A stretch of 64,000 bases of DNA, from the NCBI GenBank assembly GCA_948467605.1, contig CAOKET010000003.1:9230-73229 (forward strand), given 5' to 3'. Below are positions 7,461 through 49,036 of this stretch, in pieces. The position numbers and the translations under genes are program-made. Under the pieces are notes generated by a model, which saw only the letters and a program-made list of their open reading frames with translations, was not told the origin of the DNA and did no database searches. Origin of the DNA: an uncultured Mycoplasmatota bacterium (lineage in GTDB: Bacteria; Bacillota_I; Bacilli_A; RF39; UBA660). Each line of letters opens with the position of its first letter. Position 1 is the stretch's first letter.

Positions 7461-7633
7461 AAACTAATTGAAATAGAATCTCTTTTTTGATAAAATAAAG
7501 AAGTATTAATTAACTTGCCATGTGTTGATACTTTTACAATTTAGACGATAATTTATATTTTTAGGCAGGAAAAATATATCTATTCGGGGTATACCTATAT
7601 ATTAAAGGTATATCTTTTTTTATTTAAGGAAGG
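7461..7633 (+). repeat. Leader repeat, copy B (upstream of ORF6N paralog 3)
   Basis: Near-identical to 6376-6560, with the same hairpin (GGTATACC...GGTATATC) and T-run. Confidence 0.75.
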
Positions 7634-7642
7634 ATGATGAAA

Positions 7643-8515: not shown

Positions 8516-8545
8516 GTTATAAAAAACTTGTAAGGTGGATTTGTT

Positions 8546-9223: not shown

Positions 9224-9337
9224 TAGTAATTGATAGTATACATATTTGTTTGTAAATAATTTGATAAAGAAAATTAAAGGATTTTATAGATGAATAATAC
9301 TAAAACAAATATATTTTTATTTTAGAAAGGAATAATT

Positions 9338-10138
9338 ATGAGTAAATTAAAATTGTGTATATTTTCAGATATACATTATATAGATAAAAAACCAAATTGG
9401 ACTGTTAACCAAAAACTTACCGAATATTCTACTATACTTTTAGATAAGATTATAGATAAAGTTAATAATGAGATAAAACCAGATGTTTGTATATGCTTAG
9501 GAGATATGATACAGGCCTCTAAAAGTAAAGAAGATGATATAAATAATATAAAATATATATGGAATAAACTAAAAACAATCAATGTCCCATTTTTTTCATT
9601 AATAGGTAATCATGAGTTAAAGATGATGGAAAATAGTAAAGAGGTTTTAGAATTAATGGGATATGAAAGAAGTTGTTTTTCAACTGATATAGATAAATAT
9701 CATTTGATTTTTTTAGGAACAGAAATAAATGATAAAGATAAGTTGTATAGAACACAGTATTTATCTTCTGATGATTTAAAATGGATTAAAGAGGATTTAG
9801 GTTTAAATAAAGATAAGAAAATATTTATATTTTCACATTTTGGGATTGCAGAAGATGATATGAAAGGAAATTTTTGGTGTGAAAAGGATCCAGAAACAGC
9901 ATTGTTTAGAAATAGAGATGAGTTAAAAGGGTTATTATTAAAACAAAAAAATATAGTTGCAGTTTTTAGTGGACATCAACATTGGACAAAAAAACTTCAA
10001 GAAAATGGAATTTCTTATTATATTGTTGGTTCATTAATTGAAAATATAAATTCAGATGGAATTCCTGATGGAGTTTATTTTGAAGTTGAAGTAGATGATT
10101 GTAACTTAACAGTAAAAGAAAAACATTTGAGTATATAA
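9338..10138 (+). CDS. Calcineurin-like metallophosphoesterase
   Basis: Motifs CIFSDIHY, GDMIQ, GNHE and SGHQH are present. Confidence 0.7.
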   Translation: MSKLKLCIFSDIHYIDKKPNWTVNQKLTEYSTILLDKIIDKVNNEIKPDVCICLGDMIQASKSKEDDINNIKYIWNKLKTINVPFFSLIGNHELKMMENSKEVLELMGYERSCFSTDIDKYHLIFLGTEINDKDKLYRTQYLSSDDLKWIKEDLGLNKDKKIFIFSHFGIAEDDMKGNFWCEKDPETALFRNRDELKGLLLKQKNIVAVFSGHQHWTKKLQENGISYYIVGSLIENINSDGIPDGVYFEVEVDDCNLTVKEKHLSI

Positions 10139-17995: not shown

Positions 17996-18124
17996 CCATA
18001 ATTATAAGATATAATAATGTAACTTTTAAAATGGTAAAAATAATGTTTAAATTTAGTATATTAATATTAACTAAATTTATTGACAAATATTTTGTTTTGG
18101 AGGTATACTAAATTAGTATAAAAC

Positions 18125-18350
18125 ATTGATTGAGAGAAGTAATAATAATACTTACTTAAAGCGAGTTAGATATGGTGAAAGCTAACAGTAAAAGGTTATT
18201 ATGAATAACACTCATGAGTGCTTAAAGAAATAATAGTAGACTAAGCCGGTAAATCCGTTATCTTTATAGAGAGACTATATTTTTATAGTAAATTGGGTGG
18301 TACCGCGAAGACAACATTCGTCCCTTTGTAAGGATAATGTTGTTTTTTTA
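18125..18350 (+). ncRNA. T-box riboswitch leader of the gatCAB-aspS operon (probable Asn AAC specifier)
   Basis: Stem I AGAGA at 18133. The T-box sequence AATTGGGTGGTACCGCG is at 18291-18307. The terminator ACAACATT...AATGTTGT plus T7 is at 18312-18350. A candidate specifier is the AAC-A in gaataacactc. Confidence 0.8.
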
Positions 18351-32829: not shown

Positions 32830-33147
32830 ATGAATAAAACAATACTTGATTGTTGTATTAATTTTGATAATATAGTTAATTTTGTTTTTGATGAAGATGA
32901 TTTATATTCTAAACAATTAGTACAATATTACAAAAGTATTGTTTTAGAAGCAAACATTACAAACGAATCAAAACTAAAAAAAATAAAAGAATTTGATTCA
33001 ATTATGTATAGATATATATATGATTATAAATTTAGGAAATCATTAAAAAATGAAATAACTAGATTTAAAGTAGAAAAAATAATAGATTTCTCAGAAAAAT
33101 ATTATGAAAATTCAATAAAAAGTTTTGAAAGTACAATATGGATTTAA
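32830..33147 (+). CDS. Small hypothetical protein
   Basis: An ORF with an RBS GGAGGA. I recognise no motifs. Confidence 0.35.
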   Translation: MNKTILDCCINFDNIVNFVFDEDDLYSKQLVQYYKSIVLEANITNESKLKKIKEFDSIMYRYIYDYKFRKSLKNEITRFKVEKIIDFSEKYYENSIKSFESTIWI

Positions 33148-33199
33148 TATTGTACTTTTTATATTTTATTATTTGTTATATAATTATATTGGTGATATC

Positions 33200-35377
33200 A
33201 TGATAATTAAAGTATTAGTAGAAAATTATATTAAAACAACAGATAGTATTCTTAGTTATCATGTTCCATTTAATCTTGAGGGTGATATTGCTATTGGTAA
33301 AAGAGTAGTCGTACCACTAAACAAAAACGAAGTAGAAGGATTTATATTAGAAATTAGTAAGGAAACTCCTAATTTTGAAGTAAAAGATATAATATCTATT
33401 GTAGATGATGAACCAGTATTAAATAAAGAATTACTAAGTTTAGGAGAATATATAAAATCTATTACTTTATGTAGTTTAATAAGTGCTTACCAAGTAATGT
33501 TACCGAGTGCTCTAAAAGCAAAAAGAAATGTCAATATTAAAAGTAAATATAAAACATTTATTAAATTAAATAAAAGTATAGAATTTATTAATGATTATAT
33601 TGATAAAAATAAAAGAAATAAAAGTGAAATAGCACTCTTAAATGAACTTATAAATAATAGTATAGTAGAAAAAAATTCATTTAATAGTAGAGTTGCAAAT
33701 AAATTAAAGGATAAAGATTTAATAATATATAGTGATAAACAAATATATAGAACAGTTAGTGATGAAACTTATAAATATGATAAATTAATCTTAAATAAAG
33801 AACAAGAACATGCAGTTAACACTGTTGTTTCTGCTTTAGGTATACCTAAGGTTTTCTTACTTCATGGAGTAACTGGCAGTGGTAAAACAGAAACCTATTT
33901 ACAAATAATAGAACATGTTTTAAAAACAGGAAAAAATGTTATTGTCTTAGTTCCAGAAATATCACTTACACCACAGATGACTGAAAGATTCAAAGGAAGA
34001 TTTGGGCCTAATGTTGCAGTTATGCACTCATCATTATCTAGTGGTGAAAAGTATGATGAATGGCTTCGTTTAAAAAGAGGAGAAGCACACATAGTAGTAG
34101 GTGCTAGAAGTGCAATTTTTGCACCTCTTTCTAATATTGGACTAATAGTAATAGATGAAGAACATGAAACGACATATAAACAAGATTCTTCCCCAAGATA
34201 CCATGCTCTAGATATTGCAAAATATAGAAGTAAGTACCATAATTGTCCAATTATATTAGGAAGTGCTACTCCTTCCTTAGAAAGTTATGCTAGAGCAAAA
34301 AGAGGTGTATATGAATTATTAGAACTAAAATCACGTGCTAATGGCAAAAAGTTACCAGAAGTTAAAATAGTAGACATGTGTAGTGAAGTAAAGAAGAAAA
34401 ACTATTTAATCTCATCTATTTTAAAGGATAAAATAAATGAAAAACTATCTAAAAATGAACAAATAATACTTCTTTTAAATAGAAGGGGATACTCATCATT
34501 TATAACCTGTCACGATTGCGGTTATGTAGCAAAATGTCCAAATTGTGATATATCATTAACATTCCATAAAACTAATAATATGCTTAGATGTCATTACTGT
34601 GGATATGCTACTAAAATGTATGATACTTGTCCAGAATGTAGTGGTGAAATAAAAAATTTTGGTACAGGAACAGAGAAAGTATTAGAAGCACTAGAGAATA
34701 TGTTTGATGCAAAAATTGTTAGAATGGATTTAGATACTACATCTAAAAAGGGAAGTCATGAGAAAATTATTAAGGACTTTGAAACCCATAAATATGATAT
34801 ATTATTAGGAACTCAAATGATAGCAAAGGGATTAGATTTTAGTAATGTTACACTAGTAGGAGTAATAAATGCTGATACATCACTTAATATTCCTGATTTT
34901 AGAAGTGGCGAGGTAACATTTGAGTTACTATCTCAAGTATCAGGTAGAGCAGGACGTGATAAACTTACTGGAGAAGTCATAATACAGACATATAATAAAG
35001 ATAATTATAGTATAATATGTGCTGCTAATCACGATTATTTCTCATTTTATGACAAAGAGATGGAAATAAGAAGAGCATTAAAATACCCACCATATTACTA
35101 TTTAGTTAATATAAAAATAATGGGTAAAATTTATGATGATGTACTTAATACAGCATTAAAAATAAAAAACTATTTAAAAGATTCACTATCTAGTGATACA
35201 ATAGTCCTAGGACCAACAACTGCAAATATGTTTAAGGTTAATAATATATATAGATTTCAAATTATAATTAAATATAAAAAAGATGATAAATTATATAGTT
35301 CTCTAATCTTATTACAAGAACTTTACTTAAATAATAAAATAAACATAGATATAACTTTTAATCCATTGATATTATAG
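33200..35377 (+). CDS. priA: Primosomal protein N' (replication restart helicase PriA)
   Basis: Walker A HGVTGSGKTE, DEEH box, Cys4 zinc fingers CHDCGYVAKCPNCD...CHYCG...CPEC. The start was chosen at ATG 33200; the ORF-track start at 33125 adds a hydrophobic extension without an RBS. Confidence 0.9.
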   Translation: MIIKVLVENYIKTTDSILSYHVPFNLEGDIAIGKRVVVPLNKNEVEGFILEISKETPNFEVKDIISIVDDEPVLNKELLSLGEYIKSITLCSLISAYQVMLPSALKAKRNVNIKSKYKTFIKLNKSIEFINDYIDKNKRNKSEIALLNELINNSIVEKNSFNSRVANKLKDKDLIIYSDKQIYRTVSDETYKYDKLILNKEQEHAVNTVVSALGIPKVFLLHGVTGSGKTETYLQIIEHVLKTGKNVIVLVPEISLTPQMTERFKGRFGPNVAVMHSSLSSGEKYDEWLRLKRGEAHIVVGARSAIFAPLSNIGLIVIDEEHETTYKQDSSPRYHALDIAKYRSKYHNCPIILGSATPSLESYARAKRGVYELLELKSRANGKKLPEVKIVDMCSEVKKKNYLISSILKDKINEKLSKNEQIILLLNRRGYSSFITCHDCGYVAKCPNCDISLTFHKTNNMLRCHYCGYATKMYDTCPECSGEIKNFGTGTEKVLEALENMFDAKIVRMDLDTTSKKGSHEKIIKDFETHKYDILLGTQMIAKGLDFSNVTLVGVINADTSLNIPDFRSGEVTFELLSQVSGRAGRDKLTGEVIIQTYNKDNYSIICAANHDYFSFYDKEMEIRRALKYPPYYYLVNIKIMGKIYDDVLNTALKIKNYLKDSLSSDTIVLGPTTANMFKVNNIYRFQIIIKYKKDDKLYSSLILLQELYLNNKINIDITFNPLIL

Positions 35378-35386
35378 GAGGAACTT

Positions 35387-38300
35387 ATGAACTTAGAAGA
35401 AAAATTACATGAATTAAAATTAAATATACAAGAAAAAGCATTATTATCTGGAGATAGTAGAAAACCTATTGTATGTGATGATGAAGTAATAGAGTTACTT
35501 GCTTACTATAAGCCAACTTCTACTCATGAATTATCTAATATAAGTGGAATAGGAGAAACATTTATAGAAAAATATGGTTCTTCTTTTGTAGATTTAATCA
35601 AAGAAGAAACTAGTAAAAGAGAAAGTAGTAAATTGACAGATGAAGAGTTAGAAATTATAAAAAAATTAGAAAATAGGTTAGTAAATATAAATAAAAGAAA
35701 TACTATGCTTTATGCTGGAAAACTAAATACCAGAAAAAACTTTGATCTATATAATATTGGTACAGATAATACATTATTTAAAAACCTTATAATGGATCAA
35801 CAAAATAAAAAAATATCATTGTGTAAAACAGAAAGCATGTATTATAAACAGTTATTAAAACTCCAAAGAGAAGTATCTAGAATACAAATGGAAACAGGAA
35901 GTAATGAATTATATATTGGTTATCCATTTGTTCAAGGATTGATGGGAATTGATAAATTTACTATAAAAGCACCTCTAGTACTATTTCCATGTATATTAAC
36001 TAATGAACAAGGTGGATTTAATTTGAGTTTTGATACATCTAGAGATATACTTTACAATAATACACTTATACTAGCAAATAATAAGTTTAGAGGTAAAAAT
36101 ATAGTTTTACCAGATAATGTAGTTGAAGAGTTAAATAAAGAAAATTTTGTAAGTGAAATAATGTCATTTTACAATAATAATGGTATGTATATATCTAAAT
36201 ATAACGATGGATTTACTAAATTTCTAGAAAATACTGCAGATGAATTTCCAAAATATCCATCAGATGAATTAGAAATATTTGAATATATGGTTTTAGGAAT
36301 ATATCCATCATTTTCAACATCAATGCAAAGAGATTTTGAGACTATAAAAACTAAAAAAGAAGTAAATACTATTATTAAAGATTTAATATGGGGTATGGGA
36401 GATTCTAAAGTAGATGAAGAAAAAGAAGATGACAGTAAAGATTCTTGTTTTAATGAAGGAGATATAACATATATAAATGAGTTAAATTACTCCCAGGAAA
36501 AAGTTCTTGCAATGTTTGAAAATAGTACTTCTTTAGTAGTAGAAGGCCCACCTGGAACTGGTAAGTCACAAATGATTACTAGTTTAATCGCACAAGAAGT
36601 AAAAAAAGGCAAAAAGATTTTAATGGTATCTGAGAAGAAACAAGCACTTGATGTTATTAATTCTAGATTAGGGGAACTATCTAATTATTCAATAATAATA
36701 GATGCGATAAATAATAAAGAAGAGTTTTATAATCAAATTAGAAAAATATTATCAAATGAATTAACAGGTACACATTACTCACTAACAGAAATAGAATTCT
36801 TAGTAAAAAAAATGGATGCTAATATAAATAAACTAAAACAACTACAAACAGTTATGTTTGATGATGATTCATTTGGTATAAATATGCAAAGCATTTATGC
36901 AAAATGTAAAAACTATGATTTTAATAACTTAGAAGTATTAAAGTTTTATAATTATTTAAAAAACAACGTAGATAAAAGAATACTTGATATGAACTATGAA
37001 GATTTAAGAAATCTAAAAAGAAAATTCTCAGATAAAAATAATAATAAAAATCTATGGGGATATTTAGAGGTTAAAAATAAGTTTAACATACAAAAATATA
37101 TAAAACTAGATATAACAGATTTTGAATACAATAATTTTATAAACTATTTAAAAAACTATTCAACAATACAAGATGAGATAAATAATGCAAATATATTTAA
37201 AAGAATATCCCTAAAAAATAAACATAAAAAAGAATTTTTAAATATATTACAAACTGTATGTGTTAAAGGTGAAGCAACATCTTTATATAAAGAGACAAAA
37301 GACAATATAAATACTTTAATAGAATTCTTTAATGTATATGAAGATTTTAAAATAAATAAATTAAAATATCTTGAATTAAATGAATCTGAGCTTATATGGT
37401 TTGATAATTTATGTAAAATATTAGAAGAAAAGAACAGTACATTAGATGTAGTAAATATCGATTTATATAATTATCTTTTATATTTACAAATTGAAAAGTT
37501 TGAAAGAGAAAATTATATGACATTAAATAGTATTAATTCATACTTTGATATTACAAAAGAATTAAATAATTGTATTACACAAAGAAGTAAATTAGAAAAA
37601 ATTATAGTAAAAAATAAATTACTAGATAGTTTAAAAAAACTAGATAAAAATAATAGTCGCAAAGAAATAGAAAGACGTAGTAATCAAACTAGAAAGATGT
37701 CTATAAATAAATTTATAAGTAAACATAAATTTGAATTATTTGATTCTATAAATATTTGGATGATGACACCTAATGTTGTATCAGACATACTTCCAATGCA
37801 AGAAGAATTATTCGATATTGTAATATTTGATGAGGCATCACAACTATTTATAGAGCGGGCAATACCATCTATATATAGGGCTAAAAAAATACTTGTTGCA
37901 GGAGACTCTAAACAATTAAAACCATCATGTCTAGGATTAGGTAGAACAAGTGATGAAGAAGAGGAACAAGAGGCAATTATGGAAAGTGAGAGTTTACTTG
38001 ATTTAGCAGTATATAAATTCCCTAAAACATTATTAAATTATCACTATAGAGCAAAATATGAAGAATTAATCGCATTCTCAAACTATGGCTTTTATAACTC
38101 AAATCTTTATGTTTCACCAAATATAGAACACGATGTAATAAAACCAATAGAAAGAATAAAAATACAAAATGGACTATTTATTAATAGAGAAAATAAAAAT
38201 GAGGCATTAGAAGTAGTTAGATTATTAAAAAAAGTATTAAATGAAAAGAAAGAAGAACAAACACTTGGAATTATAACTTTTAATAGTGCTCAAAGAGATT

Positions 38301-39070
38301 TAATTTTAGATTTAATAGAGGACGAAAAAGGTAAAGATAGCGAATTTGCATTAAAAATAGAACATGAGTTTAATAGAAAAGATAATGGTGAAAATTTAAG
38401 TTTATTTGTTAAAAATATAGAAAATGTACAAGGTGATGAAAGAGATATTATTATATTTTCAACACTTTATGCTAAAGGTGAAGATGGGAAAGTTTCAATG
38501 AACTTTGGATGGTTAAACGATTTAGCAGGTGAAAATCGTCTTAATGTTGCAATATCTCGTGCTAAAGAAAAAATATATGTTGTAACTTCAATCGAACCAG
38601 ATGATCTAAATGTAGATGGTTCTAAAAATAGAGGACCAAAACTATTTAAAAAATACCTAGAATATGTAAAAGCAGTATCCGATTCCAACTATGAACTAGT
38701 TCAAGAAATACTTACATCATTACTTGAAGTACCTAAGAGTGAAGTTATTGCAAATGACACTATAGAAATGACAGAACAAGTATATAACTTCTTATTAGAA
38801 AAAAATATAAAGGTAAAGAAAAATATAGGTGTTGGTGGGTATGTAATAGATCTTGCTTTATTAGATGAAAACGATAACTATGTTCTAGCAATCGAACCAG
38901 ATGGAAAATTATATGAATACTCAAAAATAGTTAGAGAAAGAGACTATCATAGAAAAAAATACTTAGAAGTAAGAGGATGGAATATATATAGATTATGGAG
39001 TTATAACTGGTTTAAAAACAAAGAAAAAGAATTAAATAAAATTATAGATGTATTTAATAAATTAAAGTAA
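35387..39070 (+). CDS. Large SF1 (Upf1/DNA2-like) helicase with an N-terminal HRDC/HhH-like module and a C-terminal Vsr/DUF559-like restriction-endonuclease-fold domain; it resembles the single-gene Hhe defence protein (DUF4011-AAA_11-AAA_12-Vsr)
   Basis: Walker A VVEGPPGTGKSQMI, Walker B IFDEASQ, helicase C-terminal motifs (...GDSKQLKP..., ...VAISRAKEKIYVV...). The terminal ~110 aa read GVGGYVIDLAL...AIEPDG..YHR.KYLEVRGWNIYRLW, which is Vsr/DUF559-like. Length 1227 aa. Confidence 0.65.
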   Translation: MNLEEKLHELKLNIQEKALLSGDSRKPIVCDDEVIELLAYYKPTSTHELSNISGIGETFIEKYGSSFVDLIKEETSKRESSKLTDEELEIIKKLENRLVNINKRNTMLYAGKLNTRKNFDLYNIGTDNTLFKNLIMDQQNKKISLCKTESMYYKQLLKLQREVSRIQMETGSNELYIGYPFVQGLMGIDKFTIKAPLVLFPCILTNEQGGFNLSFDTSRDILYNNTLILANNKFRGKNIVLPDNVVEELNKENFVSEIMSFYNNNGMYISKYNDGFTKFLENTADEFPKYPSDELEIFEYMVLGIYPSFSTSMQRDFETIKTKKEVNTIIKDLIWGMGDSKVDEEKEDDSKDSCFNEGDITYINELNYSQEKVLAMFENSTSLVVEGPPGTGKSQMITSLIAQEVKKGKKILMVSEKKQALDVINSRLGELSNYSIIIDAINNKEEFYNQIRKILSNELTGTHYSLTEIEFLVKKMDANINKLKQLQTVMFDDDSFGINMQSIYAKCKNYDFNNLEVLKFYNYLKNNVDKRILDMNYEDLRNLKRKFSDKNNNKNLWGYLEVKNKFNIQKYIKLDITDFEYNNFINYLKNYSTIQDEINNANIFKRISLKNKHKKEFLNILQTVCVKGEATSLYKETKDNINTLIEFFNVYEDFKINKLKYLELNESELIWFDNLCKILEEKNSTLDVVNIDLYNYLLYLQIEKFERENYMTLNSINSYFDITKELNNCITQRSKLEKIIVKNKLLDSLKKLDKNNSRKEIERRSNQTRKMSINKFISKHKFELFDSINIWMMTPNVVSDILPMQEELFDIVIFDEASQLFIERAIPSIYRAKKILVAGDSKQLKPSCLGLGRTSDEEEEQEAIMESESLLDLAVYKFPKTLLNYHYRAKYEELIAFSNYGFYNSNLYVSPNIEHDVIKPIERIKIQNGLFINRENKNEALEVVRLLKKVLNEKKEEQTLGIITFNSAQRDLILDLIEDEKGKDSEFALKIEHEFNRKDNGENLSLFVKNIENVQGDERDIIIFSTLYAKGEDGKVSMNFGWLNDLAGENRLNVAISRAKEKIYVVTSIEPDDLNVDGSKNRGPKLFKKYLEYVKAVSDSNYELVQEILTSLLEVPKSEVIANDTIEMTEQVYNFLLEKNIKVKKNIGVGGYVIDLALLDENDNYVLAIEPDGKLYEYSKIVRERDYHRKKYLEVRGWNIYRLWSYNWFKNKEKELNKIIDVFNKLK

Positions 39071-39084
39071 TGTAACATATATAT

Positions 39085-39127
39085 AAAATGATAATAAAAT
39101 ATAGTATATTTTATATCATTTTTTTTA
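39085..39127 (+). terminator. Terminator after the helicase gene
   Basis: AAAATGATA...TATCATTTT followed by a T run. Confidence 0.5.
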
Positions 39128-39172
39128 AAAATGTGATAATATATTATATGTAATATGGACGGTGTTTGAAGT

Positions 39173-39748
39173 ATGAAGAAGTTTTTTAAGAATAATTTAA
39201 TTATTATAATAATTGTTGCAGTGTTTTTATTAGCAGCGGGAATTGGAATATTTTTTGTAGTAAGAGGAATGACAAAACAACAAGAAGATATAGAAAAACA
39301 AGTAAAAAATATAGATGAAAAATATAAACAATTTTCTGATGCCTCATCAGCAATATCAGAAAAACGTACTAAAATTTATAATGAAGTTTTTAACAATGTT
39401 TATTATGTTGACTTTAGTTCAAAAGATGAATCATGGAAAACAAATTTTAATGAATACTATGAACTTATCAATAATGTCCATAACGATTATAAAGATACCA
39501 TTACAATATGTAAAAAATATAATTTTATTTATGAAAGCACTAAACAGAAATGCGAATCAATATTAAAATATTATGAAATATTAATTAATAATTATGTAAC
39601 AGATTATAAACTATATAATGAAAATATAAAGAAATATAATGAATGGACTAATAGTAATACTAACTATCAAAAATTAGATGAATTTATATCAAAAGAATAT
39701 ACCGAGTATGTAGATTATAATGGTAATGGTGAAATTGAACATTATTAG
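39173..39748 (+). CDS. Hypothetical membrane-anchored protein
   Basis: An N-terminal TM, then Tyr/Asn-rich sequence. Confidence 0.45.
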   Translation: MKKFFKNNLIIIIIVAVFLLAAGIGIFFVVRGMTKQQEDIEKQVKNIDEKYKQFSDASSAISEKRTKIYNEVFNNVYYVDFSSKDESWKTNFNEYYELINNVHNDYKDTITICKKYNFIYESTKQKCESILKYYEILINNYVTDYKLYNENIKKYNEWTNSNTNYQKLDEFISKEYTEYVDYNGNGEIEHY

Positions 39749-39765
39749 TAGTAGGAGTGAAGAAG

Positions 39766-40920
39766 ATGGAAGATAAAAATATAGATAAAATAATAGAGGA
39801 CATAAAAAATGATGAATTTATGAACACTTCAGATGAAGTTAAAAAAGATATAACTGAACTAAAAGAAGAAAAATCTAAAAATAAAAAAGAAAGAAAAAAA
39901 ATGGGTAAGTTAAAAAAAGTTTTACTAGCATTTTTAATAGTAATATTATTTGGAGTAGGGAGTAGTTTATTCTTACTTTATGGACCTTGGCCATGGTTTA
40001 GAGAAACACTAATAACAACTGCTATGACAACTATGAATCATCAATATTTAGCAACTTGGTTTTATGATGATGAAACGATTCAAAAAGTATTAAACAATCA
40101 TGCAGTTATAGAATCAGGAGAAGAAACTGATACTAGTCAAATAGTTATAAGTGATGTACCTAATAATATAACTGTATATGAATCAATATATGAAGAACAA
40201 ATATTAAAAAAAGATCCAGATAACGACTTATATAAAATAGTAGAAATACACGAAGCAAAATATAAGGGATATTTAGTTGTAATATACGACCCATCCAAAG
40301 TAAAGATTGCAACAGCAAGTAGTATGGGTAACTCAGGACAATACATCACAAAAATAGCATCTGACAACAATGCGGTTATTGCAATTAACGCATCTGGCTT
40401 TGAAGATCCAAACTGGAATAGTAATGGCGCAAAACCACATGGAATGGTTATAAAAGATGGTAAATTAGTATGGAACAATGTAAGAGCACAAGTTGGTGGG
40501 GGTCTTGTTGGATTTACAAAAGACAATAAACTTATTTTAGGAAGAATGAGTGCACAAGAAGCATTAAACAAAGGTGTAAGAGATGGTATAGAGTTTGGTC
40601 CATACTTAATAGTAAATGGAAAGCCATCATTTATAAAAGGTAATGGTGGATGGGGAATCGCACCAAGAACGGCAATAGGACAAAGACAAGATGGAATAGT
40701 ACTATTCCTAATAATTGATGGAAGGACAACTGCCAGTGTAGGTGCAGATATGGTAGATCTAACTGAAATAATGCAAAGATATAAGGCCTATAATGCCGCT
40801 AACATGGATGGTGGATCATCTACTGCATTAATAGTAAAAAATCAAATACATAATAAACCAGTAGCAAAAGGTAAAAACGGTTTAAGAGGAATACCAACTG
40901 CATGGATAGTGGTAGAATAG
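39766..40920 (+). CDS. Phosphodiester glycosidase family protein (DUF2233/NAGPA-like), membrane anchored
   Basis: The C-terminal ...NAANMDGGSSTALIV... is characteristic. The ORF track starts at the GTG at 39757; the ATG at 39766 has proper spacing from the RBS AGGAG. Confidence 0.6.
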   Translation: MEDKNIDKIIEDIKNDEFMNTSDEVKKDITELKEEKSKNKKERKKMGKLKKVLLAFLIVILFGVGSSLFLLYGPWPWFRETLITTAMTTMNHQYLATWFYDDETIQKVLNNHAVIESGEETDTSQIVISDVPNNITVYESIYEEQILKKDPDNDLYKIVEIHEAKYKGYLVVIYDPSKVKIATASSMGNSGQYITKIASDNNAVIAINASGFEDPNWNSNGAKPHGMVIKDGKLVWNNVRAQVGGGLVGFTKDNKLILGRMSAQEALNKGVRDGIEFGPYLIVNGKPSFIKGNGGWGIAPRTAIGQRQDGIVLFLIIDGRTTASVGADMVDLTEIMQRYKAYNAANMDGGSSTALIVKNQIHNKPVAKGKNGLRGIPTAWIVVE

Positions 40921-40962: not shown

Positions 40963-41481
40963 TTAACACTTTTTAGGTGTACCATGCGAAATACTATATT
41001 CACGAGAACCAATAATGTGCTCTTGTACAAGGGGCACATCTTTTTTTCCAATATTACTTATTGCTGGAACCATAATATATTTGTCCTTCTTAATATATGG
41101 CAATAGTTTATCGTTAAAACCTAATTTATATTTTGTATCATACACATATGATTCTAATAATAATTCACAATTAGTATTTACATTTATATCTCTTAACATT
41201 ATTGATAAGTCAGCCAGTTTGCTAAGTGCTAGGGATTTTTTATTTTGTTTAAAAGGTAGAGTCAAGATTTCAGCCAAGAATGTGTCAATTATAAACCATA
41301 ATGGAATAGTTGACAATAATCCTTTAAAAATATCCTCTCCTCTTGCAGCATTCAAAGAGGTATAAACTGTACTTTGAATACATAAATAAGTAAAAACATA
41401 TTTTGTATATTTTTGTAATGAAAAACCAAGTTCGGCTTCCCTTATTTTTGAAAGTAAATCATAATTAATTCTAATTTTCAT
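40963..41481 (-). CDS. Hypothetical protein
   Basis: An RBS GGGGG lies 8 nt before the ATG. The overlapping + strand ORF 41015..41365 has no RBS. Confidence 0.45.
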   Translation of the reverse strand: MKIRINYDLLSKIREAELGFSLQKYTKYVFTYLCIQSTVYTSLNAARGEDIFKGLLSTIPLWFIIDTFLAEILTLPFKQNKKSLALSKLADLSIMLRDINVNTNCELLLESYVYDTKYKLGFNDKLLPYIKKDKYIMVPAISNIGKKDVPLVQEHIIGSREYSISHGTPKKC

Positions 41482-41645
41482 AATATCAACCCCCGTAATT
41501 TAAATACATATTATCACTAATGTTTTAAATTACATTATAATAATACCTATTTAGATAAATGTCAAATATTTTTTTAGTTAACACTTTACAAACTTAATTT
41601 TCTATGTTATTATAACTCTCACAAAAAAGAAAGGGGAATATAAAT

Positions 41646-41876
41646 ATGTTAAAATCTGAGGATTTATATCTTTTAAAACAAGCACTAAATAATTATTCAA
41701 AATCACTAGATAAAAATAATAGGACTAATCGTATTCTAGCAATTGCCAACTTAATAACAGCAGGGGTACTAACACATGAACAAGCACTTAATGATAAGGA
41801 ATATAGAGAGTTTATTGAATCTATGACAAATGTTAAAGATAATAGTGAGCCAATTAAAGCAACTATAAGAAGATAA
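41646..41876 (+). CDS. Small hypothetical protein
   Basis: An RBS AAAGGGGAA, and a terminator at 41876-41897. Confidence 0.4.
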   Translation: MLKSEDLYLLKQALNNYSKSLDKNNRTNRILAIANLITAGVLTHEQALNDKEYREFIESMTNVKDNSEPIKATIRR

Positions 41877-41936
41877 AATGCACTAGCATTTTTTTTCTTT
41901 AGTAGAATATAATACTAAAGAAGTTAGGCGGTTATT

Positions 41937-43124
41937 TTGAAAAACTTTAATGTATTATTTACCTTAAAAATACTAAAAAATATACTTTGGAACTTTTTAG
42001 ATAGTTTCTTTATACTTTATTTTTTAGAAATTTCATATAATAATATTTTTACATTAGGTATATATAAATTAATATATATAACTGTATTATATATTGTTAT
42101 ATTTATATTTAGAAATATATCTAAAAGTAAAAAAAGAATATATTTACTTAAAATAGGTATAATATTTAAATTTATATATTTTTTATTAATATTATTATTA
42201 AAAGAACAAATAGTTAAATATATAATTATTTTAGGAATTATATATGGAGTAGCAGAGGGACTATATTTTTCTATTTATGATGTATTTGAATCAGAAGGAA
42301 TAAATAATAAAGATAGAAATAAATTTTCTGGTTATTATGTTTTTATAAAATCTATTATTTCAATGATATTTCCATTAATATTTGGAGCATTAATAAGTAA
42401 AGAGGGGTTTAATACTTGTATTTTATTAGTACTTACTATTGTAATACTAATGATAATTATGTCATTTTTATATAAAGATGTATTTTTTTATAATGATAAA
42501 AAAACTAATTTAAAACAATACATTAAATTAATAAATAATAATCCATTAATTAAAAGAGTATATAAAATATATATATTTTATGGACTTACATATTCATCAG
42601 GGGCATTATCTAGTATAGTAACACTTTTTATATTAAAAATATTTAATAATAGTTTTAAACTAGGAATATTTACATCAATATTTAGTATTATTACTTGTAT
42701 AATAGGAATACTATTTTCAAAGAAAATAAATAAATACAAATACAATAAATATATTGGTATATCAATGAGTTTTAACATTGTAACATTTTTATTAATGGTA
42801 TTTACATGTAATTATATAACAGTTATATTATTTTACCTTTTTCAAACTATATCAAAAACTTTACTAGGACTTATAAATGATAACACAGTAGCAAACATAT
42901 CTAACATGAAAATAATAAAAGAAAATTATAAAATAGAGTATTTTCTCGGTTGTGAAACTGCATTATTTACTGGTAGATTTATTAGTTATTGTATTTTTAT
43001 AACTATGTCATTTTTTAAAGATTATATAATGTTCTTCGTTATATTATTTATATCATTTTTAATTATACTAACTATTCAGTCAATAAAATTGGTAAAAGAA
43101 TTTAATTATATTGACATTGATTAA
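41937..43124 (+). CDS. Polytopic membrane protein, putative MFS-type transporter
   Basis: About 12 hydrophobic segments. Length 395 aa. Confidence 0.45.
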   Translation: MKNFNVLFTLKILKNILWNFLDSFFILYFLEISYNNIFTLGIYKLIYITVLYIVIFIFRNISKSKKRIYLLKIGIIFKFIYFLLILLLKEQIVKYIIILGIIYGVAEGLYFSIYDVFESEGINNKDRNKFSGYYVFIKSIISMIFPLIFGALISKEGFNTCILLVLTIVILMIIMSFLYKDVFFYNDKKTNLKQYIKLINNNPLIKRVYKIYIFYGLTYSSGALSSIVTLFILKIFNNSFKLGIFTSIFSIITCIIGILFSKKINKYKYNKYIGISMSFNIVTFLLMVFTCNYITVILFYLFQTISKTLLGLINDNTVANISNMKIIKENYKIEYFLGCETALFTGRFISYCIFITMSFFKDYIMFFVILFISFLIILTIQSIKLVKEFNYIDID

Positions 43125-43364
43125 TAACAGATTTTAGTATGAATTGATAGTTACTATAAGGATAAGTGAGTAATAACTATTATTATAGGTATTGCTAAAT
43201 TATTAAAAAGTTTAATATATTAATATATATATTTTTAAAAATATTAATAAAAAATAAGTTTATAAATGAAAAAAACTATGACGAATTCTTTTAGTCATAG
43301 GTCTTATATACTAAATTTATAACAGTTACATACGTACTGTGAAACTTATTTTAAATATATGAAT

Positions 43365-43688
43365 TTATATTTTAAAGTAAGAACCATAATTTCTTTCTGC
43401 TTCACTTTGTAAGGATTCTGCATCATCTTTAATTGCTTGAACAATTCTTTCTTTAGTCCAAATATTTTTTTCGCTTAAGAGTTCTTTTCCACTAACGTAT
43501 ATATTTATCAACGGTACTTTTAAAGAATTCAATGTCATAACAATAAATTTTTGCATTTCTGTTGTTTGTTCCGCTCTAACAAAAAAATCAAAACCAAGAT
43601 AATGAGGACCACTACAACGAATATCTACTGGATCATTATTAACACAATCAACACATATCTTTGAACATTCTATTAATTTATCACTCAT
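43365..43688 (-). CDS. Small Cys-containing hypothetical protein
   Basis: A CxxC-containing N-terminus (CSKICVDCVNNDP). It faintly resembles YuzD-like DUF1462 proteins. Low confidence. Confidence 0.35.
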   Translation of the reverse strand: MSDKLIECSKICVDCVNNDPVDIRCSGPHYLGFDFFVRAEQTTEMQKFIVMTLNSLKVPLINIYVSGKELLSEKNIWTKERIVQAIKDDAESLQSEAERNYGSYFKI

Positions 43689-44398
43689 ACATGAAAACCT
43701 TCCCTTAAAATTTGTATGAAGTTTATTATATATTAATTTTTAATTTTGTCAATTATCTTTTTAACTTTAATGTTAGTATTTAAAAATAGTATAAAAAGTG
43801 CGTTATTAAATATTAAAAATAAAATATTATTTAAAATATAGATTTTAAAATAATTTCTGTAAATTAATGCATTATAGGCAATTATAATTTAAAAAATTTA
43901 GAGGAGAATTATTATTTTAGAAATTACAATTAGTGAAAGTGAGAAAAAATTACTAGAAAACAGTAGTTTAGAAAATGTATTTTTATTTTACATTTCATTA
44001 AGTTATGAAAATATCAAAAGTTCATTAACTTATAATAAGGTAGTTGGAGATGTAACTGTATCTATTAATGAACAAATAAAAAGTTAGAAGATAAGAATTT
44101 TAAAGAGATATGTATATATTATTCATATTCAGATAATGAATATATGTGTAATTTACATTTTTTGATTTTATGATAAAAATATTGATTCCTAATTGTAGAA
44201 TGTACGTTGAAAAGGTTTTGTGGTTTTTATTTAGAATTCTTGCATAGATATTTTAATTAAACAAAATATTATTGAAATATGTAAAATAAAATGGGAAAAA
44301 ATATGCTAGGTGAGGTTAAAGAACAAAAATATATAAGAATCATTAAAGTATAAAATATTATACATGATATAATAGTTTTATAGGAAGGTGATTAATAC

Positions 44399-45010
44399 AT
44401 GAGAATTAAACATCATAAACAAATTGTAGATATGTTGTATAAAGAATGGGACTTAGGTAAAAAATCATCAAAGGCAAAAGGGAAAACATGTGCATGGATA
44501 TATTGGTTTGAAATACTAAATGAAGTAGAAGAAGTAATTACAGAAAAAAAAGATAATAATATTATAGGTATATGTGCTTATTCTAAATGTGGTTCTAAAA
44601 AACATATTATTAGAAAAAAGATATACGAATTGTTAAAAAATCTATTAATTTCTAGTTTTCTTGTGAAGAATAAAGAAAACTTATATAAATATAATAATGA
44701 CTATGATTATTTGCCAAAAGAATTAGAAAACTATTTTGATGGTGAAATAACAATCCTTATTGTAGATAAGCAATATAGAGGTAAACAAATAGGTAAAAAA
44801 CTTTTAAATAAAACATTTGAAATTGCAAAGAATGATAATATTAATAATCTCCAAATATCAACTGATGAATCATGTAATTATAAATTCTATGAAAGTTTAG
44901 GTTGCACAAAAATATATGAAAAAACAATTCCAAATAGAGAAGTAGATAAATGTGGCAATAAAACAACAGAAGAGGGATATATATATGAGAAAAAATTAAG
45001 AAATATATAA
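44399..45010 (+). CDS. GNAT family N-acetyltransferase
   Basis: ...VDKQYRGKQIGKKLLNKTFEIAK... Confidence 0.65.
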   Translation: MRIKHHKQIVDMLYKEWDLGKKSSKAKGKTCAWIYWFEILNEVEEVITEKKDNNIIGICAYSKCGSKKHIIRKKIYELLKNLLISSFLVKNKENLYKYNNDYDYLPKELENYFDGEITILIVDKQYRGKQIGKKLLNKTFEIAKNDNINNLQISTDESCNYKFYESLGCTKIYEKTIPNREVDKCGNKTTEEGYIYEKKLRNI

Positions 45011-45083
45011 AATATGTAAGTTATAAATTGACTTACTATATAAATAAATGATATACTAAACCAACTAAAGGAGAGGACAAGAG

Positions 45084-45746
45084 TTGAGTTTAATAGAAAA
45101 TATTCCGTATAAAAAAAGTTTTATAGTAAAAGATGATTTATCATTATTAGGCAAAAGTCAAACAATATCTATATCAAAATATTTATGTGGAGATATTTAT
45201 GACCGTTATTATTTAAGAGTAAATACAAAAGACGATAATAATAATCCTTTAGATCAAGGGTATCTTTATTTTTATCTAGACTTTGAAAAAAGAAAAAGCG
45301 AATTTATTGGAGTAAAAATATCTCAAGAATATCGAAATTGTGGACTTGCATCTTTACTTATTTCTGTTTGGATACAATTTTGTTTAGATGAAGGATTTTT
45401 AAATTTACAAACAATTTCTAAACAAAGAAAACCATTTGTATTATATCTTTTAAAAAAGTATGAATTTGAGTTAAGAAATTTAACTACTTATCGAACATCA
45501 ACAAGAACAGTTCATATATGTAAAAAAGAAAATGAAGATAGAAAATGTATTATGTTTGAAAATAAACAAGAAGAGAATCGTTTTAGAAATAGCAATATTA
45601 TGAAAACTGATAATTATAGAATTATTGGAAAAGAAGAACAAAATATTAGTATTTTAGATAGTGTTGTTCTATATACGCCATATTTTTTACAAGATCAAGA
45701 AAAAGCATATCAAAAATCTTTACAGTTTTATAATAGTAAAAGATAA
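45084..45746 (+). CDS. GNAT-like acetyltransferase (TTG start)
   Basis: ...ISQEYRNCGLASLLISVWIQFCLDEGF... Confidence 0.45.
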   Translation: MSLIENIPYKKSFIVKDDLSLLGKSQTISISKYLCGDIYDRYYLRVNTKDDNNNPLDQGYLYFYLDFEKRKSEFIGVKISQEYRNCGLASLLISVWIQFCLDEGFLNLQTISKQRKPFVLYLLKKYEFELRNLTTYRTSTRTVHICKKENEDRKCIMFENKQEENRFRNSNIMKTDNYRIIGKEEQNISILDSVVLYTPYFLQDQEKAYQKSLQFYNSKR

Positions 45747-45817
45747 AACATTTATTAAAAAATATATGTTATACTTATAGTGTATTTGTATAAAAAAACT
45801 AAAAATGAGGTAAGTAT

Positions 45818-46606
45818 ATGTATAATATTTATGATGAATTAAATAAAATGATAGATTATATAGAAGAACATATATTAGAAAATATTGATATAAAAGTATT
45901 AACAAAAATCACTGGTTTAAATATAAATACTTTAAAAAGTGTTTTTAGTTGTCTAACTGGTATAAGTATAACAGATTACATAAGATTAAGAAGATTGACT
46001 CTTTCAGTAAGTGATATATTAAAAGGAAAAAGTATTACTGAAGTATCATATAAATACTTATATAATTCACCATCTAGTTATAATAGAGCATTTAAAAAAT
46101 ACGAAGGAATAACACCAAAAGAAATAAAGAGTAATACTAGTAAATTAAAACTATTTAATAAGATTATTTTTAAAGAAAATATAAAAAATTATAATATAGA
46201 TTATAAAATATACAAAAATAAAGAGTTTAATTTATATGGTATTTCAAAAAAAATAGATTTTGAAAGTAGAACTAAAGATATACCAGAGTTTTGGAAAGAA
46301 GTAAAAAATAAATATGAGGAATTTAATTCTAATAAACGATATGGCTTTTTGGATGAATCAAATAATAATGAAATATTATATTTTTGCTTGCTTGAAAAAA
46401 AATTTAAAAGTTCTAAAAAAATAAACATACCAAAATGTAATTATTTTGCTATTAAAATAGATGATTTTAAATCACAAAGTATAATTAATAATATAAATAA
46501 ATGCTTAGATGAATATATAAAGTCCCTTAATTATAAAATATTAGATATGGCTAATATTGAAATATATTATGATAATTATATTGAAATCTTAATACCCATT
46601 ACTTGA
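45818..46606 (+). CDS. AraC-family HTH regulator with a C-terminal GyrI-like effector-binding domain (Rob/BmrR-like)
   Basis: AraC HTH ...ITDYIRLRRLTL...SYNRAFKKYEGITPKEIK, then a ~150 aa GyrI-like C-terminus. Confidence 0.65.
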   Translation: MYNIYDELNKMIDYIEEHILENIDIKVLTKITGLNINTLKSVFSCLTGISITDYIRLRRLTLSVSDILKGKSITEVSYKYLYNSPSSYNRAFKKYEGITPKEIKSNTSKLKLFNKIIFKENIKNYNIDYKIYKNKEFNLYGISKKIDFESRTKDIPEFWKEVKNKYEEFNSNKRYGFLDESNNNEILYFCLLEKKFKSSKKINIPKCNYFAIKIDDFKSQSIINNINKCLDEYIKSLNYKILDMANIEIYYDNYIEILIPIT

Positions 46607-48355: not shown

Positions 48356-49036
48356 ATGATTAGTACAAGCAGTTATAATAATTGGAAAAGTGACAGATAT
48401 ATAACTTATTCTATATCTGGTGATTGTGGAAAAAAAGCAGGATATATTGGAAGAAACTTTAAACAATTAGCACCTAAATTATCATTTTGGCAAGTATGGC
48501 ATGATAATATTGGTGTTATTGAAGAAGAAGAAAATAATAGATATTATATAGAACAGTATTATGAACAAGTATTATCTAAACTTGATCCAGAAGATATTTA
48601 TAGAAAGTTAGATGGTTCTATACTTTTATGTTATGAAGATAACACAGAATTTTGCCATAGACATATAGTTGCAGGATGGTTAGAAATTTTATTAAATATA
48701 GAAGTTCCAGAAAAAATAGCATACGGCTATAATGTAGAAACAGTTGAAAGACCAGATTATATTAAAGAATATTTAGAAAGTGCAATGAGAAAAAATCGTA
48801 ATATGAGGGGATTTAACTCATTAAGAGCATTATATCTATTTGAAAAAGGAGAAAAACTAGAAGAAGAGGCAGCAAGACTAAAGGAATCAAATAATGTAGA
48901 TACTTTTACTGATATAGATACAGGTGAAATAATAGTAACAGCAAGAGAATATATGCAAGAAGCATGCTATTTAAGATGTCGTGCTGATGATGCAGAAGAG
49001 GAATATAATAAAAGACGAGTTAAAGTAAAAGAATAA
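48356..49036 (+). CDS. DUF488-like protein with a C-terminal extension
   Basis: ...LLCYEDNTEFCHRHIVAGWLE... matches the conserved DUF488 core. Confidence 0.5.
   Translation: MISTSSYNNWKSDRYITYSISGDCGKKAGYIGRNFKQLAPKLSFWQVWHDNIGVIEEEENNRYYIEQYYEQVLSKLDPEDIYRKLDGSILLCYEDNTEFCHRHIVAGWLEILLNIEVPEKIAYGYNVETVERPDYIKEYLESAMRKNRNMRGFNSLRALYLFEKGEKLEEEAARLKESNNVDTFTDIDTGEIIVTAREYMQEACYLRCRADDAEEEYNKRRVKVKE

Follow-up and report, generated by a model that had tools for sequence, protein, structure and literature searches.

The gene under study occupies positions 35387..39070 (+ strand) of a 64-kb stretch of DNA, here called the window. As the first-pass annotation had stated, it is a single complete gene starting at ATG and encoding 1227 aa, as seen from the ORF list, its translation and the Pfam, PADLOC and NCBIfam scans. 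It follows priA (primosomal protein N'; 33197..35377, + strand), which is identified by its translation and by the PriA Pfam domains of its homologues, and whose likely start is the ATG at 33197 and not the TTG at 33125, the homologues having 724-731 aa. The Shine-Dalgarno sequence of the helicase-nuclease gene, AGGAGG (35376..35381, + strand), is read directly and overlaps the priA stop codon TAG (35375-35377); the intergenic gap measures 9 nt, which corrects the start 10 nt after priA given earlier. Judging by sequence, co-transcription and translational coupling of the gene with priA are very probable. A promoter scan returned promoter-like sites at chance frequency for AT-rich DNA (73 found versus 77.5 expected), and an internal promoter thus finds no support.

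At the 3' side, the sequence and its folds reveal an A-U-only hairpin followed by a U-run (39085..39126, + strand), a candidate intrinsic terminator. The terminator previously ascribed to the gene is not called by the consensus scan after the gene, and the folding energy of the hairpin is ordinary for its composition (z -0.16 to -0.22); yet it is probably real, since an equivalent AU hairpin with U7-U9 stands right 3' of the stop codon in four of the five species, with L001, L112 and L114 carrying it. The two genes directly downstream encode a 191-aa protein and then NAGPA, which is 60% identical to its sister-group orthologue and appears as an ancestral neighbour, and variable genes start only beyond NAGPA; the description of the downstream genes as unrelated accessory genes is thus not sustained. 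No homology was detected between the 191-aa protein and its positional counterpart of 228-242 aa in sister lineages. The gaps around the helicase-nuclease gene are of 9 and 102 nt, its flanks are free of integrase and transposase genes and of repeats, its GC content equals the host background, and its neighbourhood in the window is not a defence island.

Domain architecture of the 1227-aa protein

The Pfam scan places HRDC, DUF4011, AAA_11, AAA_12, MTES_1575 and DUF559 above the gathering score, among which are the DUF4011, AAA_11, AAA_12 and DUF559/Vsr matches that had been proposed for searching. The suspected N-terminal HRDC/HhH-like segment is an HRDC domain (aa 24-71; 35456..35599, + strand; PF00570, 32.4 bits) with invariant residues G54, G56, F59, Y63 and F67, and its AlphaFold model (pLDDT 81) matches the RecQ HRDC structures 2RHF and 1WUD with target-normalised TM values of 0.76-0.86. 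The N-terminal 75 aa superpose on the RecQ HRDC, with 33% identity to HRDC3 of D. radiodurans, whereas in RecQ the HRDC is C-terminal to an SF2 core and here it is N-terminal to an SF1B helicase. Next comes an alpha/beta DUF4011 module (aa 79-335; 35621..36391, + strand), whose Pfam match (PF13195, 36.3 bits versus a gathering score of 22.2) spans aa 79-227. The module is modelled confidently (pLDDT about 75-92) and has no significant match among solved structures; its invariant residues include N105, D120, Y179-P180, A195-P196-L197, D216, R219 and Y223-N224.

The helicase core is split. The N-terminal part of domain 1A (36467..36721, + strand; AAA_11 match) holds the Walker A motif GPPGTGKSQ (aa 387-395, nt 36545-36571; G387-Q395 invariant), in a region that aligns to motif I of IGHMBP2 and Upf1. 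It is followed by an insertion of ~340 aa inside domain 1A (aa 446-790; 36722..37756, + strand), which comprises helices alone according to DSSP of the model and has few invariant columns. The C-terminal part of 1A and domain 2A (37757..38596, + strand; AAA_11 and AAA_12 matches) contain the invariant Walker B motif DEASQ (aa 815-819, nt 37829-37843) and the further motifs GDxxQLxP, QGDERD and GENRLNVAISRA, likewise invariant in the family; overall, the family shows no variation in Walker A, Walker B or motifs III, V and VI. The Pfam matches score 67.8 bits for AAA_11 (aa 366-490 and a second stretch) and 71.0 bits for AAA_12 (aa 872-1068). In agreement with the Upf1/DNA2-type SF1 core first recognised from GPPGTGKSQ and DEASQ, the Foldseek matches of the core are Upf1-like SF1B helicases, with E down to 2e-12, and the relatives of the motor by Foldseek or alignment are Aquarius, IGHMBP2, Upf1, SETX, Dna2 and ZNFX1. 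These helicases (IGHMBP2, Upf1, Senataxin/Sen1, Aquarius, Dna2, ZNFX1) are the closest solved motors and have the same motif set, but the identity is about 12-22% and all of them lack both the HRDC-DUF4011 head and a C-terminal Vsr-type nuclease; in Dna2 the nuclease lies at the N-terminus and is of another PD-(D/E)xK type. Since the Upf1-like SF1B group has 5'->3' polarity, the same polarity would be expected here.

The C-terminal Vsr/DUF559-type endonuclease is likewise borne out, as an MTES_1575 domain (aa 1130-1221; 38774..39049, + strand; PF18741, 87.5 bits; PF04480, 24.0 bits), a family defined as having the Vsr-REase fold (PMC3710099). The acidic catalytic residues D1155 and E1170-x-D1172, along with R1183, R1185, D1186, H1188 and K1191, are invariant or at least 90% conserved. 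Among solved structures, a C-terminal family profile matches 3HRL, a DUF559 endonuclease-like protein (E 2.7e-5), and the motifs D / ExDG / D..R..YL..G..R.W line up; the family profile was needed for this PDB search, as a single-sequence query gave spurious repeat-protein matches. The best explanation of the sequence is that the gene product would be an active single-polypeptide DNA helicase-nuclease.

Acquisition behind priA and retention in the clade

Clade membership was inferred from protein clusters, and the comparisons were made with close relatives. The gene order in sister lineages is priA-fmt-(228-242 aa)-[NAGPA]-rlmN-PP2C-PrkC, so that fmt (L012, L013) holds the slot that the helicase-nuclease gene occupies here, as had been surmised. 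These lineages (~57% priA identity) have no helicase-nuclease gene at the priA locus, and the helicase is likewise absent in L011; as the gene sits in their fmt slot, it is a lineage-specific acquisition. Within the clade, the comparison of priA neighbourhoods that had been suggested finds the gene next to priA, 1-12 nt apart, in all five known species-level clusters (L001, L002, L111, L112, L114); the flanks vary on both sides, and the pair is the sole constant through the rearrangements.

The identity of the helicase-nuclease within the clade is 76-81%, versus 72-77% for PriA, and each of the six related loci has an unbroken reading frame of 1226-1230 aa. The dN/dS of the gene is 0.07, being lowest (0.02) in the helicase region 37757..38596, and no domain has an elevated value in a manner that suggests an arms race. 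A near-identical strain also carries the gene, and a recombination tract with a ~7% divergent allele covers it in a strain whose identity is otherwise about 99.5%. Diversifying selection between near-identical strains, considered for the gene (95.2% versus 98-100% for its neighbours), was rejected in favour of the recombination tract (dS 0.36, dN/dS 0.07).

The comparison shows a single acquisition of the gene, directly behind priA, in the ancestor of a genus-level clade of low-GC gut Bacilli, and vertical inheritance since then as a tight priA-helicase pair under strong purifying selection. From the synteny in all five clusters, a conservation at least that of priA and the dN/dS of 0.07, the gene therefore behaves as a core gene of the clade and not as strain-variable defence cargo. 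The earlier picture of an acquired gene riding on priA transcription thus stands as to acquisition and, very probably, co-transcription, but the acquisition is not recent: the gene was acquired long ago and is now fixed. Core-genome presence with a housekeeping annotation had been named as an argument against defence; the gene is present and syntenic in all five clusters, whereas a housekeeping annotation is found in no source.

Kinship with Hhe, ProA and PDC-S37

Hhe is reportedly the single-gene system of Gao et al. 2020. It has in common with the 1227-aa protein a DUF4011 region, an AAA_11/AAA_12 helicase and a Vsr-type nuclease in one polypeptide, and the Hhe-like domain order and superfamily kinship first proposed are thus upheld. 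Membership is not, as the NCBIfam model NF042953 gives 372.3 bits versus a cut-off of 2000, with the best stretch at model positions 1239-1684 of 1797, and three other subfamily members score 396-434 bits; the corresponding E-values for the window protein are 5e-111 (NCBIfam) and 5e-81 (PADLOC PDLC02194). The Hhe models have about 1800-1900 positions, whereas the window protein is shorter, adds the HRDC and is without DUF3320. As an accessory gene, Hhe is carried by some E. coli genomes only (10.1101/2022.06.16.496414), unlike the window gene, which is fixed in its clade. The Hhe nuclease mutant E1731A abolishes defence (10.1101/2022.06.16.496414), and the equivalent residue here is presumably E1170 of the ExDG motif, the two being likened without aligning the sequences; class II DNA-metabolism genes of T7 behave as Hhe triggers (10.1101/2024.10.10.617714). 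The literature searched yielded neither a paper on the mechanism or structure of Hhe nor a primary description of ProA and PDC-S37.

ProA (NF058533) and the PADLOC candidate PDC-S37 are the best-scoring known family, with 508 and 516 bits (E-values of 6e-152 and 7e-155), and have, like the window protein, a single gene in which DUF4011 is followed by a split SF1B helicase and then by an MTES_1575 Vsr-type nuclease. The suggested PADLOC scan accordingly matched the PDC-S37 and Hhe models, but 516 bits over a partial alignment (best stretch 859-1340 of 1550) does not amount to membership. The ProA score of 508.1 bits compares with a cut-off of 1500, other subfamily members reaching 544-569, whereas the Vibrio plasmid protein L113 scores 1391 against NF058533 and 1952 bits over positions 1-1544 of 1550 of the PDC-S37 model. 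L113 is a full-length PDC-S37/ProA-type protein encoded beside two DUF262 genes; the window protein is 33% identical to it in the C-terminal 493 aa and 27% identical in the stretch from DUF4011 to Walker A. ProA/PDC-S37 proteins have about 1550-1900 aa, DUF4011 first, no HRDC and a DUF3320 (wHTH) tail. L113 has DUF3320, whereas the window protein has no match to it (PF11784) and ends 6 aa past the nuclease domain; the helical insertion is of ~340 aa here and of ~570 aa in L113. Curated cut-offs and partial alignments thus refute membership in Hhe or ProA/PDC-S37. The Mokosh models MkoA and MkoC give 133 and 90 bits only, reflecting helicase-core similarity with no strong full-length match.

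More than 1300 homologues of the protein were found, the close family having 1180-1290 aa. At E <= 1e-30 to aa 1-360, the subfamily amounts to 73 clusters (50% identity) among 1.84 billion representatives, and its full-length clusters are nearly all of 1180-1290 aa and match from residue about 2-30. Its hallmark, also found in the window protein, is an N-terminal HRDC joined to DUF4011, with no DUF3320. These HRDC-DUF4011-SF1B-MTES_1575 proteins make up a small and unnamed branch, not described before, of the DUF4011 helicase-nuclease superfamily, of which the single-gene anti-phage proteins Hhe, ProA and PDC-S37 are the characterised representatives or candidates. Elsewhere in the superfamily, a DUF4011 gene flanking the defence hotspot cDHS1 of P. 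aeruginosa is core in every isolate (PMC10250203); its large protein is likewise stably fixed and presumably belongs to another subfamily, being likened here without sequence comparison. The superfamily therefore includes stably fixed chromosomal genes. In a culturable, studied strain of M. hominis, an ICE interrupts a chromosomal DUF4011 gene (PMC12228374).

Immune and genome-maintenance readings

On the analysis as a whole we slightly favour defence as the likeliest role, and an immune function of the gene is plausible, though unproven. Intact catalytic motifs and best defence-library matches to PDC-S37, ProA and Hhe point to it, as does a patchy distribution across Bacteria and Archaea in unrelated contexts, together with the lineage-specific insertion fixed in all five species clusters under purifying selection. 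Defence-type neighbours occur in three of nine independent contexts, a small sample taken without a formal background: the family member P0059 (L008/9) lies in a clear defence island with a Type I R-M system bearing a shufflon integrase, GmrSD_N and AAA_15/21, AbiEi is immediately downstream of the member in L048, and a Type I R-M-like methyltransferase adjoins the one in L006/L007. The remaining contexts are housekeeping, and so are most of the pooled neighbours; an all-vs-all BLAST of 77 neighbours gave no conserved partner gene, recurrence being restricted to ordinary housekeeping genes of the archaeal syntenic group. Against defence also stand the wide margins by which the cut-offs of both named anti-phage families are missed, the ordinary neighbourhood in the window, the lack of any domain with elevated dN/dS, and a long vertical retention, atypical of defence genes, with conservation at least that of the essential priA. 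In an archaeal lineage retention is similarly stable, the helicase being 54-68% identical versus 46-70% for its syntenic neighbours. Full-length members are absent from PLSDB plasmids, INPHARED phages and IMG/VR, and presence among close relatives is not variable.

As an immune gene, it would be expressed constitutively from the priA housekeeping operon. The HRDC and DUF4011 module may recognise a DNA structure (a ssDNA/dsDNA junction, an end, or a replication or recombination intermediate), the Upf1-like SF1B motor would translocate 5'->3' on single-stranded DNA with ATP (K393 of Walker A; D815/E816 of Walker B), and the Vsr-type endonuclease (D1155, E1170, D1172) would nick or cut the tracked DNA. 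By analogy with Hhe, the most likely target would be phage DNA, or that of other invading elements, while it replicates, because Hhe does not defend without its nuclease and its activation follows the DNA-metabolism genes of phages. The gene would then represent an immune gene that became fixed long ago ('domesticated'), as opposed to mobile cargo.

Genome maintenance competes seriously with defence as the role of the protein, although on balance we regard it as rather unlikely. The protein would be a housekeeping Dna2/RecQ-like helicase-nuclease acting on stalled forks, flaps and recombination intermediates alongside PriA restart, with Hhe and ProA as specialised relatives. The constancy of the closely spaced priA-helicase pair in all five species clusters, its conservation and low dN/dS, the archaeal lineage in which the gene has stayed among housekeeping neighbours despite deep divergence and the absence from plasmids and phages are all consistent with this role, as are an HRDC otherwise typical of the RecQ/BLM/WRN genome-maintenance helicases, an SF1B core resembling Dna2 and the core DUF4011 gene of P. 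aeruginosa. However, the priA link is confined to this Bacilli clade, with priA nearby in none of the eight other contexts, and operon membership says little on function because the usual occupant of the slot, fmt, is functionally unrelated to priA. The absence from the priA locus of sister lineages and the rarity of the family argue therefore against a general housekeeping function, and some members lie in defence or TA contexts, while the M. hominis gene was disrupted in a culturable strain. Still more tentatively, the HRDC-DUF4011 subfamily might be a new prokaryotic class of genome-maintenance helicase-nucleases, analogous to Dna2 or to RecQ plus a nuclease, recruited into the priA operon for fork processing at restart and kept in some archaea likewise, with Hhe, ProA and PDC-S37 as defence offshoots of a housekeeping ancestor.

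A true Hhe or ProA/PDC-S37 orthologue, callable as such by automated tools, is very improbable: the domain order is the same and the E-values are highly significant, but the window protein and three other subfamily members miss the equivalog cut-offs 3-5-fold, the best stretches cover the C-terminal helicase/nuclease only (~1200-1790 of 1797-1911; 859-1340 of 1550), and the window protein is 300-700 aa shorter, with an extra HRDC and DUF3320 missing. Least credible of all is a decaying or selfish remnant, a pseudogene in the making or mobile-element cargo with no host function, which the lineage-specificity of the gene and its divergent allele might suggest but which the unbroken frames, invariant catalytic motifs, low dN/dS, close intergenic gaps, host-like GC content and flanks free of mobile elements contradict.

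If the protein is anti-phage, it would add to the Hhe/ProA group a compact HRDC-bearing variant that is unnamed in current curated models, and would represent an immune-type gene that lost mobility, displaced fmt from a core operon and has long evolved in a core-like manner. If it serves genome maintenance, automated defence annotation would over-call the DUF4011 superfamily, and the protein would be a new repair or restart factor. On either reading, the DUF4011 module of ~250 aa, well modelled without a structural relative, and its pairing with an HRDC single out the segment that would choose the DNA substrate, which is the question posed by Hhe-type systems.

Domain architecture and family placement

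The helicase-nuclease gene (35387-39070, forward strand) comprises 1227 codons from an ATG start and shows no compositional break, the window having a G+C content of about 24% throughout. A Pfam search, in which all listed matches exceed gathering scores, places HRDC at aa 24-71, DUF4011 at aa 79-227, AAA_11 at aa 366-490 plus a second stretch, AAA_12 at aa 872-1068 and MTES_1575 at aa 1130-1221 (87.5 bits), together with DUF559 (24 bits); the motifs GPPGTGKSQ and DEASQ are found at aa 387-395 and 815-819. By its published definition MTES_1575 is a novel restriction-endonuclease fold of the Vsr type, and DUF3320, discussed below, a winged-helix pair (PMC3710099). Two AlphaFold models from a 26-sequence family alignment (mean pLDDT 81 in both) complement this picture: on structural superposition residues 1-78 match RecQ HRDC domains (TM 0.76-0.86), residues ~80-335 form a confidently modelled alpha/beta module, and the motor matches Upf1-like SF1B helicases (Aquarius, IGHMBP2, Upf1, Senataxin, Dna2 and ZNFX1), with an all-helical insertion inside domain 1A (residues ~446-790). 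The C-terminal domain profile matches 3HRL, a solved DUF559 endonuclease-like protein (E 2.7e-5), with the D / ExDG / D..R..YL..G..R.W motifs in register. A search for solved structures of close relatives returned none, and the alpha/beta module corresponding to DUF4011 is of particular interest, as it has no significant match, and so no structural relative, among solved structures. All helicase motifs and the acidic core of the nuclease are invariant in 26 diverse members, as is much of DUF4011. Clearly, a conserved HRDC+DUF4011 head is joined in one polypeptide to an SF1B ATPase/helicase and a Vsr-type nuclease, both intact, and the order of N-terminal segment, SF1 helicase and Vsr/DUF559 nuclease proposed in the first-pass annotation is real.

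The assignment to Hhe, a named single-gene anti-phage family, fared differently: DUF4011, AAA_11, AAA_12 and DUF559/Vsr were all recovered, but the best NCBIfam matches are to ProA, another such family (508 bits, cut-off 1500), and to Hhe (372 bits, cut-off 2000), so that the protein is Hhe-like at the superfamily level only. The best PADLOC matches are the defence candidate PDC-S37 (516 bits) and Hhe (271 bits), and membership in ProA/PDC-S37 is rejected by the curated ProA cut-off; for three further subfamily members the ProA scores are 544-569 bits and the Hhe scores 396-434. As a reference for comparison we used a 1566-aa Vibrio parahaemolyticus plasmid protein adjoining two DUF262 genes, which spans the PDC-S37 model end-to-end (1952 bits, positions 1-1544 of 1550) and scores 1391 against the ProA model. 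Its order is DUF4011, AAA_11, a ~570-aa insertion, AAA_12, MTES_1575 and DUF3320, with HRDC absent. Its identity with the window protein amounts to 33% across the C-terminal 493 aa and to 27% between DUF4011 and Walker A. ProA/PDC-S37 and Hhe are therefore homologous to the window protein from DUF4011 through the nuclease, whereas the latter represents a shorter separate branch in which an HRDC is added, the insertion is shorter and the DUF3320 tail is missing. Indeed, an exhaustive search with residues 1-360, counted as representative clusters at 50% identity, yields only 73 clusters at E <= 1e-30, whose full-length members are nearly all 1180-1290 aa and align from residue ~2-30; weaker matches begin at residue ~90-155, have lengths of 1240-1974 aa and constitute the wider superfamily. 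The protein is best filed as belonging to an HRDC-bearing, DUF3320-less and so far unnamed branch of the DUF4011 helicase-nuclease superfamily.

The priA locus in the clade and its sister group

In every close relative readable at this locus (comparison loci L001, L002-L004, L111, L112 and L114, of which L001 is an uncultured Bacilli MAG from a Hadza gut sample), priA is followed by the helicase-nuclease with 1-12 nt spacing. The close homologues fall into five clusters, at 100, 88, 80, 79 and 74% identity, after which identity drops to 48% or less, and the priA homologues run in parallel (98, 77, 77, 72 and 69%, then 59% or less). The flanks vary by species: 5′ of priA are found cdsA-rseP (window, L111), uppS (L001), a rhomboid-type gene (L002) or a polysaccharide deacetylase gene (L114), and 3′ of the helicase-nuclease a 191-aa gene plus NAGPA in most, or a YitT-type membrane protein gene in L114. 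In the sister group (priA ~57% identical) the order in L012 and L013 is cdsA-rseP-(small ORF)-priA-fmt-(228-242 aa)-[NAGPA]-rlmN-PP2C-PrkC-rsgA-rpe, and in L011 the helicase-nuclease is likewise absent 3′ of priA. The genes cdsA, rseP, small ORF and NAGPA are orthologous between window and L012, and fmt and the rlmN-PP2C-PrkC-rsgA-rpe block are absent from the window (33197-40920, compared with L012/L013) and from the L001-L004 loci. Given this gene order and the missing fmt, the helicase-nuclease occupies exactly the fmt slot, in agreement with the earlier view that def-fmt usually sit here. Gene order further shows one old insertion or replacement in the clade ancestor: the notion of an acquired defence gene stands as to acquisition, but this occurred long ago, the gene being now fixed and core-like in the clade and a candidate for a defence role.

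At the junction the AGGAGG ribosome-binding site of the helicase-nuclease overlaps the stop codon of priA, and the spacing is 9 nt rather than the 10 nt first reported; the gene is tightly coupled to priA. The terminator attributed to it is a candidate A-U-only hairpin with a U-run, and four of five related species have a comparable hairpin with U7-U9 3′ of the stop codon, but a consensus terminator scan misses the window's hairpin and its folding energy is ordinary for DNA of such composition. Homologues of priA are 724-731 aa long, so its real start is probably ATG 33197. Just 5′ of priA is a conserved 105-aa ORF (32830-33147), which overlaps the TTG extension of the priA ORF (33125-33197) and is 30% identical to a 120-aa ORF in L012, there two genes 5′ of priA.

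Conservation of the helicase-nuclease at least equals that of its neighbours, identity among relatives being 76-81%, compared with 72-77% for priA, 61-72% for the 191-aa protein and 76-89% for NAGPA. With respect to L111, a near-identical strain, nucleotide divergence is 0-1% up to ~34.5 kb of the window and 4-11% from the 3′ end of priA through the entire helicase-nuclease (~34500-39140). Over the same range dS is 0-0.04 in upstream genes, 0.11 in priA and climbs to 0.36 in the helicase-nuclease, where dN/dS remains 0.07, a combination that rejects diversifying selection. By region, dN/dS is lowest in domain 2A (0.02) and highest in the C-terminal 160 aa (0.20), with 0.05 for codons 360-790, which include the insertion, and 0.11 for the N-terminal module. 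These results evidence strong purifying selection, and the divergence corresponds to a homologous-recombination tract carrying a diverged, fully functional allele, with its right-hand end past the end of the L111 contig.

Genomic contexts

Members at 35-48% identity occupy unrelated genomic places. L008/L009 is a classic defence island, comprising Type I R-M with an integrase-driven hsdS shufflon, GmrSD_N and AAA_15/21; directly 5′ of member P0059 (L008 1-7961) the Type I R-M genes, with a phage-integrase gene between full and partial inverted hsdS, precede the GmrSD_N protein gene. AbiEi is found directly 3′ of the family member in L048, and L006/L007 have an adjoining Type I R-M-like methyltransferase. 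In L021 a 1588-aa fusion helicase (4614-9377, forward strand; RecQ/DpdF-like SF2 at aa ~240-630, UvrD/GajB-like SF1 at aa ~1030-1470) lies 5′ of the member, separated from it by one small reverse-strand ORF. Defence-type genes are absent among the immediate neighbours tested in L005, L018 and L047; in L005 a 1277-aa protein without Pfam or PADLOC match (3481-7311, forward strand) is encoded 5′ of member P0008, with two small genes between. Overall, three of nine independent contexts, a small sample with no formal background, have defence-type neighbours, which is suggestive of defence but not decisive, and the 77 pooled neighbours are for the most part housekeeping genes. In the window itself, the region 3′ of the gene carries an MFS transporter, a GNAT, an AraC/Cass2 regulator, an ABC exporter, NlpC/P60 and NrtR, among others, and does not constitute a defence island.

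Two genes 3′ of the helicase-nuclease, the stretch 40963-46606 looks like a small variable islet, bounded by a conserved reverse-strand 172-173-aa gene and the AraC/Cass2 regulator: it holds MFS and GNAT genes in the window, and in L002 (15684-22227) NTP_transf_2 (MNT-like), a 137-aa ORF without Pfam match, RhuM and a metallo-beta-lactamase-fold gene. Directly following the ABC exporter gene, 48356-49033 (forward strand) encodes a 226-aa protein with weak matches to DUF488-N3a and to CTD4 of ABC-three-component (ABC-3C) conflict systems. The sole Rfam family at gathering score within the window is a T-box leader (RF00230, 134 bits; 18117-18328, forward strand), 5′ of ORFs starting at 18668.

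Inheritance and proposed function

Upf1-like SF1B helicases have an established 5′ to 3′ polarity, and HRDC domains bind DNA structures. From these properties, the HRDC+DUF4011 head would recognise a DNA junction or end, the SF1B motor would track single-stranded DNA 5′ to 3′, and the Vsr-type nuclease would nick or cleave DNA. In Hhe, the nuclease glutamate E1731 is needed for defence against T7 (10.1101/2022.06.16.496414), and T7 class II DNA-metabolism genes act as triggers, suggesting that phage replication activity, rather than any single protein, is what Hhe senses (10.1101/2024.10.10.617714). By homology with Hhe, we somewhat favour replicating foreign DNA as the target, that is, a defence role, in which the housekeeping operon would provide constitutive expression.

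The main rival, a role in genome maintenance, we regard as rather unlikely. It would account for the RecQ-type HRDC and for core-like behaviour in two lineages, since a second case of long vertical retention appears in archaea (L010, L016, L017 and L024; G+C 47-61%), where FlK thioesterase, helicase-nuclease, HMA/Cu-ATPase, diphthamide synthase and ribose-5-phosphate isomerase are syntenic, with identities of 54-68% for the helicase-nuclease and 46-70% for its neighbours, as expected of stable inheritance. Mobile elements agree with it as well, PLSDB plasmids, INPHARED phages and IMG/VR containing no full-length member and only distant HRDC-less relatives. However, the linkage to priA is limited to one clade, the usual occupant of the slot 3′ of priA, fmt, has an unrelated function, and the family is both rare and patchily distributed. 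Fixed genes are also known from other parts of the superfamily, as a DUF4011 gene is core in every P. aeruginosa isolate (PMC10250203), and the disruption of a DUF4011 gene by an ICE in a studied M. hominis strain (PMC12228374) suggests that such genes can be dispensable. Read as a candidate defence gene, the helicase-nuclease would illustrate neatly how an immune-type gene can become part of a core operon.
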